A stretch of DNA of 23,494 nucleotides from a virus (IMGVR_UViG_3300025597_000613:1-23494), one strand, 5' to 3'. Shown: positions 17,376 through 19,155, numbered from the stretch's first letter. Program-made: numbers and translations. The notes: generated by a model not told the origin, from the sequence alone.

Positions 17376-17880
17376 CACCGTTATGACCGTTGTTGGCACC
17401 GGATGCAGTACCAATCTCCGACACAGTACCTTCTATGTATTCACTAGATGCTCTCACCTCAGGGATGAGTATCCAGCTTTCCTCCAGTATACTCTGCGTC
17501 TATCACCAAATTATACTCTAATCAATATATGCATTGCACCCCGCAAAATCGGGCAAGCAAGTGGCCGGGATTCTTAGGCCCCTAACAAAAAATTATGAAA
17601 GTAATGTAAGTTTCTTTGGATATATCTCCTCAAGCCGATAAATCGGGTCAAAGATCTATCATATCATTTATGTAACGTTAATTCCATCGGCACCCGCCCT
17701 GTTGGACAGAAACCAAGTGGGTTGCACCTCTCAGTACAATACGGCTCAGTGAATGGCGAGGATTAGCTCCCGAACTACAATCCTACAAGCCATTCACCGG
17801 AGATTTGAGTTTCCCTTTCGGGCACAGATTTCTCTATGTCATCAGCACTCATCTTCTCCGACCGTTTCGTCCTTCTGAAC
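17328..17880 (-). ncRNA. candidate large structured RNA region (~550 nt)
   Basis: No credible ORF; nested stems with GNRA tetraloops and G-U pairs favouring the minus strand; 3' terminator. Confidence 0.5.
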
Positions 17881-17883
17881 TCG

Positions 17884-18072
17884 TCAGTTGTACAAATTTT
17901 CAAGCAGTAGATAAAGAGCAAAAAGAGTATTTAGAACAGGGCACAGAATCAAGAACATAGCAAAAATTCTTTCCTTCATGGTGAAGGGGTAACCCATTTC
18001 CACCCCGGCTCTATACTCCTTTGCAAGGAGCAAGGCCAGAACAATAACGGAAAGGATATACGCTGCAATCAT
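17884..18072 (-). CDS. small membrane protein (start MIAAYIL)
   Basis: Two hydrophobic segments, CPVLNTLF motif. Confidence 0.7.
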   Translation of the reverse strand: MIAAYILSVIVLALLLAKEYRAGVEMGYPFTMKERIFAMFLILCPVLNTLFALYLLLENLYN

Positions 18073-18105
18073 CTCAAGCTCGCTGTGCAATGCTTAAATA
18101 CTACT

Positions 18106-18280
18106 AAAAATCTGCCTCAGTTGCAAGCATCCGAGGTCTAGTATTTTTCAACCCTTCGGTTTAGCCTGGGAATTCAACCCAGCGACAAAAGAACGATGTA
18201 AGCCTTTCACTTACCTGCCCGCAAAATTCCCTGCGTTTTTTGGGTGGGACGCAGAGATACGCTTTCGCGTAGCCTTTAGA
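18106..18280 (-). ncRNA. candidate structured RNA with GAAA tetraloops and terminator
   Basis: UACGC-GAAA-GCGUA, GUAAG-UGAAAG-GCUUAC, CUGGG-UUGAAUU-CCCAG, terminal CCUCGG/CUGAGG plus U-run. Confidence 0.45.
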
Positions 18281-18377
18281 ACTCACGCTTCGGTCTTGAA
18301 CCGAACATCAAACGGACTTCAGGCATGCTTGCAGGGCCCTACGTCAAATCTCGTCTGAAGCATCCCCATTCGTGAGC
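18281..18377 (-). other. tRNA-like element (acceptor stem and canonical T-arm, no D-stem, extended central arm)
   Basis: GCUCACG/CGUGAGU; UUCGG-UUCAAGA-CCGAA; GCUUCAG/CUGAAGU; no encoded CCA. Confidence 0.45.
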
Positions 18378-18382
18378 ATATT

Positions 18383-18455
18383 TGGCGTCTTCTTGCAGGC
18401 CTTGAACCTACCAGTGATACATCATTAACGATCAAAGTGTTCCAACCTAGAAGAC
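18383..18455 (-). pseudogene. degenerate tRNA with encoded CCA; anticodon not assignable
   Basis: GUCUUCU/AGAAGAC-G-CCA; T-arm GUAGG-UUCAAGG-CCUGC; poor D-arm and irregular anticodon arm. Confidence 0.5.
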
Positions 18456-18466
18456 AAATTTGAAAA

Positions 18467-18537
18467 GTCCCACGGGGAGTCGAAACCCCAATCGCGTTAT
18501 TTTAAGAAGCGCGACGTCAACCTTTAGATGACAGGAT
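18467..18537 (-). pseudogene. degenerate tRNA-like sequence
   Basis: D-like CAUCUAAAGGUUGAC, UCGCG/CGCGA stem with 13-nt loop, GGGG-UUUCGACU-CCCC; weak acceptor stem. Confidence 0.35.
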
Positions 18538-18563
18538 GCAGCCCGTTCATCTACGACGGAAAC

Positions 18564-18704
18564 TTACAGGGTACGACAGAAAGAAAAGTGGGGCCGACCC
18601 TACGGCGCTGGGGATAACCCATCTATTCTCTTCCGATTGCAACAGAACTTGGAGAAAGTGGCATTTGCATCTACCCGAATCCCCTTGTCTATCGCCCCCT
18701 GTAA
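18564..18704 (-). ncRNA. candidate ~140-nt RNA closed by a long basal stem
   Basis: UUACAGGG/CCCUGUAA plus GCGAUAGA/UCUGUCGU; inner GGGGAU/AUCCCC and GCCG/CGGC; weak promoter upstream. Confidence 0.5.
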
Positions 18705-18719
18705 ATTCCCAACAATCTT

Positions 18720-18748
18720 ATTTTGCTGTATTAGCAAGGATAGGTCAA
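18720..18748 (-). promoter_or_regulatory. weak-consensus sigma70 promoter TTGACC-17-CAAAAT with spacer palindrome TTGCT-N5-AGCAA
   Basis: Sequence; precedes the RNA cluster. Confidence 0.45.
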
Positions 18749-18759
18749 CTGGTGCTATA

Positions 18760-19155
18760 CTAAATGTAGAGACAGTGAATAAATTCCTTCAATGCCACAC
18801 GCTCTTCCTTTGAAAGTTTTTCAAAGGTTTCTTTAGCTAGAATATATCTTTTTGCCTTAGCATCTTGTTCGACTTGAATTTCTTTTAGTTTGCCTTCGAT
18901 GTTTTCAATTTCCCATTCATCAGATTCATAATGAATTTCGTCATCGTAGAAACCGTTTTGTTCATCGTTGAAGACAAGCTTAGGACCTATAGCGGTTAGG
19001 ACGAGATGGGAGGAAACACCGAGCTTTTCGGCCAGTACCTGTGCTTCAAGCATTCTCTTAGGAATACTTTTCCTAAATTCAGCCAATGCGAGCTCAGCCG
19101 CCGCCTGTTCAGCAGCCAACCTTTCAGCTTTTTGTTCTTTGGTCTCTTTAGCCAT
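18760..19155 (-). CDS. hypothetical protein, probably leaderless
   Basis: ORF; ATG 6 nt after the -10 box. Confidence 0.8.
   Translation of the reverse strand: MAKETKEQKAERLAAEQAAAELALAEFRKSIPKRMLEAQVLAEKLGVSSHLVLTAIGPKLVFNDEQNGFYDDEIHYESDEWEIENIEGKLKEIQVEQDAKAKRYILAKETFEKLSKEERVALKEFIHCLYI

Follow-up and report, generated by a model that had tools for sequence, protein, structure and literature searches.

That small stable RNAs can lie within phage tRNA clusters has been known since T4. An ORF-free stretch in the genome of an uncultured phage holds several RNA elements that look like broken tRNAs, and the question it raises is whether these are dying tRNA genes, cutting signals for their neighbours, baits for a tRNA-binding factor, or RNAs with a task of their own. 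The window, that is the whole stretch of DNA analysed here, is 23,494 nucleotides long and forms the opening 23.5 kb of an IMG/VR virus record of 211.6 kb with an estimated completeness of 55%. The source virus is an uncultured jumbo phage, and its nearest cultured relatives are the PA5oct-like phages, at about 43% protein identity. The answer that we consider probable is that the locus is an operon, conserved among jumbo phages, of independent small RNA genes, here called LS, A, B and C, with a lineage-specific element B' added, and that A and B are mimics derived from tRNAs.

Layout of the array

The array occupies the minus strand of a 670-nt gap without ORFs, with a 131-aa ORF (18760-19155) on one side and a 68-aa ORF (17884-18090) on the other. 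The original prediction, made from the sequence by itself, described the region as an operon of structured RNAs, and this description holds: five elements follow one another on the minus strand behind a promoter, in the predicted order LS RNA, tRNA-like A, B', tRNA-like B and C RNA, with no ORF among them. The promoter (18720-18748, minus strand) is sigma-70-like, with TTGACC and CAAAAT separated by 17 nt, and has 9 of 12 matches in the promoter scan. Its assignment is strengthened by the relatives, where near-consensus promoters occupy the same position, before LS RNA or A (L007, L009, L011, L013, L015, L016 and L019). LS, A, B and C lie no more than a few nucleotides apart, with no promoter between them, and strong compensatory base changes are seen in each of the four across the relatives. 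The proposed terminator is the least certain part. A hairpin with a 6-bp stem, a 10-nt loop and U5 can be read from the sequence at 18106-18136 (minus strand), but it is weak and was not called by the terminator scan. It overlaps a promoter-like site (18098-18126) of the 68-aa ORF. This ORF is membrane-like and separates C from the hammerhead region in the window (17859-17910).

Detection by tRNA and RNA family searches

With default settings ARAGORN found no tRNAs in the window and 11 elsewhere in the genome. It called A or B in none of the 33 relatives, yet it found the true tRNAs nearby, and its tmRNA search over the genome found none. Rfam gave no match in the window at the gathering threshold, including GOLLD, ROOL and the other catalogued large phage RNAs. 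At E<=10 the region 17800-19000 gave two irrelevant weak matches only, and no tRNA, tmRNA or Y RNA. When the ARAGORN threshold was relaxed, four tRNA-like matches appeared on the minus strand between 18158 and 18558. Relaxed matches are common, 139 in the genome; four on the same strand within 450 nt form the densest cluster in the 211-kb record, and 0.017 such clusters are expected genome-wide. A scan of this kind had been proposed together with the original prediction; it gave nothing at the default threshold and, at the relaxed one, a cluster beyond chance. The fourth match (18158-18227) was rejected as a tRNA-like unit: its apparent arms are the hairpins P4 and P5 of C RNA, and its apparent acceptor is not conserved. 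The single-sequence folding z-scores of the array elements are modest, -1.2 to -2.0. For annotation, the consequence is that tRNA finders miss A and B at default thresholds and mislabel them as odd tRNAs at relaxed ones.

Relatives and their distribution

A homologue of the upstream protein gave two related loci, L004, which is a near-identical sibling, and L007, in which the protein is 46% identical; searches with three single window proteins gave no useful relatives. In L007 the promoter is followed by a long-stem RNA with a different yet complementary closing stem, and then directly by a copy of B with 74% identity, in which the changes in the acceptor and T stem are compensatory. A search pattern built from two blocks common to the window and L007 found 14 IMG/VR loci and about 40 metagenome loci, with 34 distinct B sequences among them. 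B is present in 52 loci, each with exactly one strong match to the covariance model of B (R1), and A is present in 34 loci as a single copy; both are always on the array strand. The covariance model of A (R2) gives one copy per genome. All in all, the array is found in about 50 uncultured jumbo-phage contigs, and the recurring order is promoter, LS RNA, A, B and C RNA, often followed by a hammerhead and a larger RNA. Genes for tRNA-Arg(UCU), tRNA-Met and tRNA-Leu(UAA) lie upstream of the array on the same strand, both in the relatives and in this genome. Since this synteny is kept, the loci are orthologous and belong to a tRNA/RNA region of the phages. The families, their structures and their conservation are direct observations in these loci, and they define two tRNA-derived RNA families and two companion families with clear structures in dozens of uncultured jumbo phages, with no match in Rfam.

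The modules are also found apart from one another. B lies directly behind an ORF in L014, L017, L025 and L046, A lies directly behind a promoter in L009, and a complete 385-kb IMG/VR phage has C RNA behind an ORF (L102:1150-1300) with neither A nor B at E<=0.1. The solitary C RNA of L102 implies that the modules of the array are inherited independently.

Outside these contigs the searches were negative. In a blastn search of 50,697 cultured phage records neither the region nor a typical B had a match, with the limit set as high as E<=10, and R1 found no B in PA5oct, RaK2, GAP32, Atu_ph07 or XacN1. Matches of R2 with 18-20 bits in these five phages were rejected as A, as they sit in a coding region or in a true tRNA-Asn. 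Five pattern matches among 185,579 prokaryote genomes were chance matches and were rejected by the model. The window and L004 have 0 differences in 597 positions over the array, which is weak as proof of selection, the divergence between the two being patchy and some ORFs identical as well.

Structure of B

R1 places B at 18280-18377 on the minus strand with 85.5 bits, in agreement with the D-armless element that was predicted at 18281-18377. The 5' part consists of a 7-bp acceptor stem, a linker (A)AAU and then GGGGAUGC (18360-18367). The core is an irregular hairpin, helix X, built of an outer stem, a 5' bulge or small hairpin, an inner stem, and a 3-bp stem that closes a 13-nt loop, CCCUGCAAGCAUG (18324-18336). 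The 3' part continues with UG, a canonical T arm (18289-18305), a bulged G and the 3' strand of the acceptor. In B and B' alike the T stem is 5 bp long and its loop reads UUCRAGA, and the extra purine that was predicted between the T stem and the acceptor strand is real in both of them; this bulge before the 7-bp acceptor is kept in 32 of the 34 distinct members of the B family. The discriminator is U in the window and variable in the family. The family structure contains no D stem and no anticodon arm.

In an alignment of 18 sequences, 93% of the cells are paired, as compared to 30-44% in slid controls, and 16 pairs have changed on both sides (0 of 500 shuffles reached as high). The covariation spans the acceptor, T and helix X helices. 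In addition, AUGC follows GGGG in 33 of 34 distinct members, and GCAUG follows CCUGCAA in all 34; the sole exception is a change of C to U, by which a G-U pair is kept. Neither AUGC nor GCAUG was required by the search pattern, so the constancy of these two is genuine. For AAUGGGG, CCUGCAA and the T loop, which the search patterns did require, part of the constancy is there by construction. RNAalifold independently proposes that AUGC of the linker pairs with GCAU of the loop. Together with helix X, this predicted pairing, both sides of which never vary, may form a pseudoknot. An extension of it, by GGG with the three pyrimidines after the loop, was also considered, but the competing 3-bp stem that closes the loop explains the covariation better. 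B is a functional RNA kept by selection and not a decayed tRNA, because covarying helices and strictly conserved motifs are maintained across phages with a neighbouring protein that is only 46% identical.

Structure of A

A degenerate tRNA had been predicted at 18467-18537. The element exists, but the borders were wrong, and the conserved unit is 18464-18565 on the minus strand (R2, 96.1 bits, E 1e-17). Its 8-bp acceptor-like helix pairs 18558-18565 with 18464-18471. There are no nucleotides 8-9. The D-like stem has 3 bp, and its first pair, at the position of 10:25, is G-C in 20 of 20 sequences. Into the D loop a covarying hairpin, hp1 (18525-18553), is inserted, with a conserved 15-nt loop, and a GG-containing remnant of the D loop comes after it. 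At the place of the anticodon arm stands hp2 (18492-18514), with 7 bp and a U-U closure as compared to the 5 bp of an anticodon stem, and with the loop C-U-U-N-N-A-A. After hp2 come two U, a 4-bp T stem in a T arm at 18474-18489, a 2-nt spacer and the 3' strand. The T loop is 8 nt in the window and in most members, and 7 nt in some.

Although the stems differ, hp2 folds in all of 23 distinct members. The central triplet of its loop varies among the orthologues (UUU, UGU, UAU, UUA and UAA, the last being that of the window). For A as a whole, 88-91% of cells are paired against 39-67% when slid, 13-15 pairs have changed on both sides, and 0 of 500 shuffles reached pair counts as high; the D-like stem and hp1 are among the helices with compensatory changes. 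A rod-arm tRNA mimic about 124 kb into the genome was rejected as a second member of the family, since R2 finds a single copy and the two sequences differ. The single-sequence minimum free energy fold has the same four-way junction as the family model. A is thus a cloverleaf with a D-loop hairpin, and it is a functional RNA rather than a decayed tRNA, because its non-tRNA regions covary across the relatives. It is most likely not a decoder, given the over-long arm, a triplet that varies among orthologues, and the lack of a call by ARAGORN at default settings.

These observations support the original prediction in that the elements are not working tRNAs, B having no anticodon arm and A an over-long arm with a variable triplet, and also in that the acceptor/T-arm minihelix is the part of the tRNA that is kept. 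They do not bear out a decay of the D and anticodon arms. In A and B these arms are replaced by structures that covary or are strictly conserved.

The short element B'

B' (18383-18455, minus strand) was predicted as a degenerate tRNA ending in CCA, and the borders are exact; the element ends in GCCA. It has a perfect 7-bp acceptor, a reduced core, a T arm and a bulged A. Apart from B, it is the only R1 match in the 211-kb record, with 23 bits and an E-value of 3e-4. True tRNAs fall below the E=1 line on R1 in this genome, and in T4 they reach about 10 bits or less. B' has the bulged purine and the UG ahead of the T stem in common with B, and its linker is similar; the conserved 13-nt loop is absent from it. 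It is present only in the window and in the near-identical L004. A directly adjoins B in 27 of 34 loci, and an 80-nt filler between the two occurs in the window only. B' may be a lineage-specific short duplicate of B, either young or decaying.

LS RNA and C RNA

LS RNA was recognised in the original prediction as a long-stem RNA at 18564-18704; the RNA is there, but its closing helix is longer, and the element covers 18558-18710 on the minus strand (RNAalifold, 12 relatives). The closing helix comprises 26 bp in the family and carries many compensatory changes. In total the family structure has 32 pairs, 13 of which have changed on both sides. Inside it are a hairpin with a hexaloop of the UGCAA type and a conserved GUUGCA block. 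Shortly downstream of the hexaloop lies UUGCAG, which is complementary to it, and judging from this complementarity the two could form a pseudoknot.

The GAAA-rich RNA, predicted at 18106-18280, is likewise present, but with family borders at 18141-18279 (C RNA, minus strand; RNAalifold, 9 relatives). The family has 15 distinct members, and the structure has 35 pairs, 13 of them changed on both sides, in at least five hairpins. The parts are a GAAA-capped hairpin, a hairpin with the loop UCCCACCCAA.., a GCGGGCA block and the hairpins P4-P6. Two strings in C RNA, UCCCACC and AAGUGAAA (18231-18254, 18198-18214), resemble bacterial 5S rRNA. The fold is different, however, and there is no Rfam 5S match, and the likeness is probably a coincidence.

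A motif containing UGCA recurs in apical loops of the array, in the LS hexaloop CUGCAA (18660-18676), in the hp1 loop of A (18532-18546) and in the 13-nt loop of B (18324-18336), and these loops may carry a putative common binding site. We also considered a kissing contact between the hp1 loop of A and the linker of B; it fits the loop types of the window and of L016, and not the other loop types.

The 8 nt at 18558-18565 belong to two helices, in LS to the 3' end of the closing helix and in A to the 5' strand of the acceptor-like helix. Since this strand is common to both, the two helices compete for about 7 nt. The LS closing helix is far more stable, so the helix of A may not be formed in the precursor. 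The competition could reflect an order of processing or a switch.

Alternative explanations

The simplest alternative is that the three tRNA-like elements are functionless genes on their way out by neutral decay. That neither ARAGORN at its default nor Rfam recognises them is what decay would predict. It is nevertheless refuted for A and B, and as an account of all three elements it is highly improbable: conservation of the stems in relatives had been named beforehand as the observation that would separate function from decay, and dozens of divergent contigs have kept A and B, with compensatory changes and strict motifs that are foreign to tRNAs. Decay could be conceived of for B' only, which is confined to one lineage, has a minimum free energy fold that is not a cloverleaf and ends in GCCA as real phage tRNA genes do; against this stand its perfect acceptor and its score on the B model, well above that of true tRNAs. 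Almost as improbable is that A, though not B, functions in decoding as an unorthodox tRNA for ANN or UUR codons. A has the four-way junction, the invariant G-C pair of the D-like stem, a GG in what is left of the D loop, and loop positions that resemble U33 and A37-A38, but its triplet differs among close orthologues, its arm is 7-8 bp long, nucleotides 8-9 are missing, the T loop is mostly of 8 nt, and CCA is not encoded as it is in the true phage tRNAs. The UAA triplet of the window would furthermore duplicate that of the nearby tRNA-Leu(UAA).

Two other explanations, both of which we regard as unlikely, give the elements a function. According to the one, A, B and B' act purely in cis, like t-elements or mascRNA, and do nothing else than direct the RNase P/Z cuts by which LS and C mature. 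The three elements do sit exactly between the other RNAs, separated from them by 1-3 nt, the minihelix is their best-kept tRNA feature, and a hammerhead would have the equivalent role after C RNA in relatives. For such a task the minihelix would suffice, however, and the 8-nt and 13-nt motifs and helix X of B would be left unexplained, as would hp1, the D-like stem and hp2 of A. A and B also occur beside ORFs or promoters without LS or C, just as C occurs without them, and it is because the modules occur alone and the core of B is strictly conserved that punctuation cannot easily be the whole explanation. According to the other, A is a bait for anticodon nucleases such as PrrC, RloC or PARIS AriB-type enzymes, and B titrates another tRNA-binding factor. 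The loop of A is of the type found in ANN-reading tRNAs, and its central triplet evolves fast among orthologues, as would be predicted from an arms race. On the other hand, the triplets include UAA and UUA and fit no single target, and the arm exceeds an anticodon stem by 2-3 bp, which may block recognition. Since B has no anticodon loop, an anticodon-nuclease decoy is conceivable for A only.

A model for the array

If the array is, as we believe, an operon of independent small RNA genes, the following course of events can be imagined. The single sigma-70-type promoter would transcribe the array as a precursor, in which A and B keep the acceptor/T-arm minihelix and have the rest of the tRNA replaced by structures specific to each family. 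RNase P, 3' trimming, CCA addition and T-loop modification require no more of a tRNA than the acceptor/T-arm minihelix. We infer that A and B are processed and stabilised by the host tRNA pathway because this minihelix is what remains of the tRNA, and a role in trans is inferred along with it. The tRNA-maturation machinery of the host would cut at the tRNA-shaped ends, which would free and stabilise A and B, and the same cuts would fix LS at its 3' end and C at its 5' end, while the hammerhead further downstream would do the equivalent job there. On the strength of this likeness to a tRNA end, A and B are probably excised by the host enzymes that trim tRNAs. That A and B keep the acceptor/T-arm end and have strict motifs in place of the decoding half points to a tRNA-processing pathway put to a non-translational use.

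Some observations speak against excision in this form. The 3' CCA is encoded in all 11 true tRNAs of the phage that ARAGORN finds (genome positions 27048-28867 and 197878-206748), but among the tRNA-like elements B' is the only one to encode it (18383-18385), A and B being without CCA, and no gene for a CCA-adding enzyme was found in the 211-kb fragment, which represents a record that is 55% complete. Furthermore, the bulged purine of B and the 8-nt T loop and missing nucleotides 8-9 of A could impair recognition by RNase P.

Once matured, A and B would act on their own by means of their remodelled bodies. B would display GGGGAUGC and the loop CCCUGCAAGCAUG, possibly paired with each other, and these would most likely bind one conserved protein or RNA partner. 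A would display the rod-like hairpin of the D loop and the over-long arm with its loop of the tRNA-Lys/Thr type. Our best guess is that the bodies of A and B may bind a single conserved partner. A bolder version of the same idea, which is possible but doubtful, is that A and B represent a class of phage-encoded, non-decoding tRNA mimics that enter host tRNA maturation by the acceptor/T-arm handle and capture one host or phage factor with their conserved UGCA loops. The captured target may then be an immune nuclease directed at tRNAs, a factor of tRNA modification or of translation, or a protein by which the array is assembled into an RNP. At about 100 nt, RNAs of these families lend themselves to assays of RNase P cleavage and CCA addition, to pull-downs and to tests against defence systems.

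Comparison with known systems

The closest known analogues of A and B are the species 1 and 2 RNAs of T4, which are not homologous to them. T4 rnaC (species 1, 139 nt) and rnaD (species 2, 119 nt) are small stable RNAs directly behind tRNA-Arg on the same strand in the T4 tRNA cluster, and the 3' end of rnaC has a canonical T arm and an acceptor-like strand. A and B resemble them in being located near phage tRNA genes and in having tRNA-like ends. In the T4 region 69000-74000, however, the models score no higher than on true tRNAs, R1 with at most 10.3 bits and R2 with at most 11.4 bits, and T4 has no equivalent of the core of B or of the LS and C RNAs. The function of the T4 species 1 and 2 RNAs was unknown as of 2022 (PMC9697503).

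The tRNA-like domain of tmRNA shares the topology of B, with an acceptor and a T arm, a D arm reduced to a loop, and a long helix in place of the anticodon arm. B differs from tmRNA in being 98 nt long and in having no tag reading frame, no G3-U70 pair and no series of pseudoknots. YrlA, a bacterial Y RNA that is bound with Rsr/Ro60, is a non-coding mimic of the tRNA elbow found in bacteria and phages near RtcB, but its RNA ends close the Ro-binding stem and not an acceptor. A gene with a TROVE domain (PF05731) was searched for in the 211-kb record, 55% complete, and gave no match.

In plant mitochondria, t-elements are tRNA-shaped units in longer transcripts that are cut by RNase P/Z and define the ends of neighbouring RNAs (PMC1920247). 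The array resembles these and mascRNA in having tRNA-shaped units inside longer transcripts. They differ in being eukaryotic or organellar and in lacking a conserved core specific to a family, and the modules of the array also occur alone. The tRNAs of T5 and of mycobacteriophages with altered anticodon loops escape tRNA-targeting defences. Like A, these are phage-encoded, lie in tRNA clusters and have fast-evolving anticodon loops. They are canonical and chargeable, however, whereas A carries a hairpin in the D loop and too long an arm, and B is without an anticodon.

Additional modules next to C RNA and B

In L004 (3994-4170) an extra folded-RNA module of 151 nt is inserted after the position corresponding to 18163 of the window. 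On either side of it stands a direct repeat of 24 nt, formed by the last hairpin of C RNA (18139-18163 in the window). It appears that the window has lost this module by a deletion mediated by the repeat, because a homologous module sits at the same place in L014 and L102. A short form of C RNA, without the last two hairpins, runs into the hammerhead core in L011, L016, L021, L034 and L048. Another recurrent ORF-free module, absent from the window, adjoins B in L046 and L073; it starts with GAUAUGUGAC, ends with AAUUUAAUGUCAC and contains the conserved block GGUGCAUGUGGGCCC.
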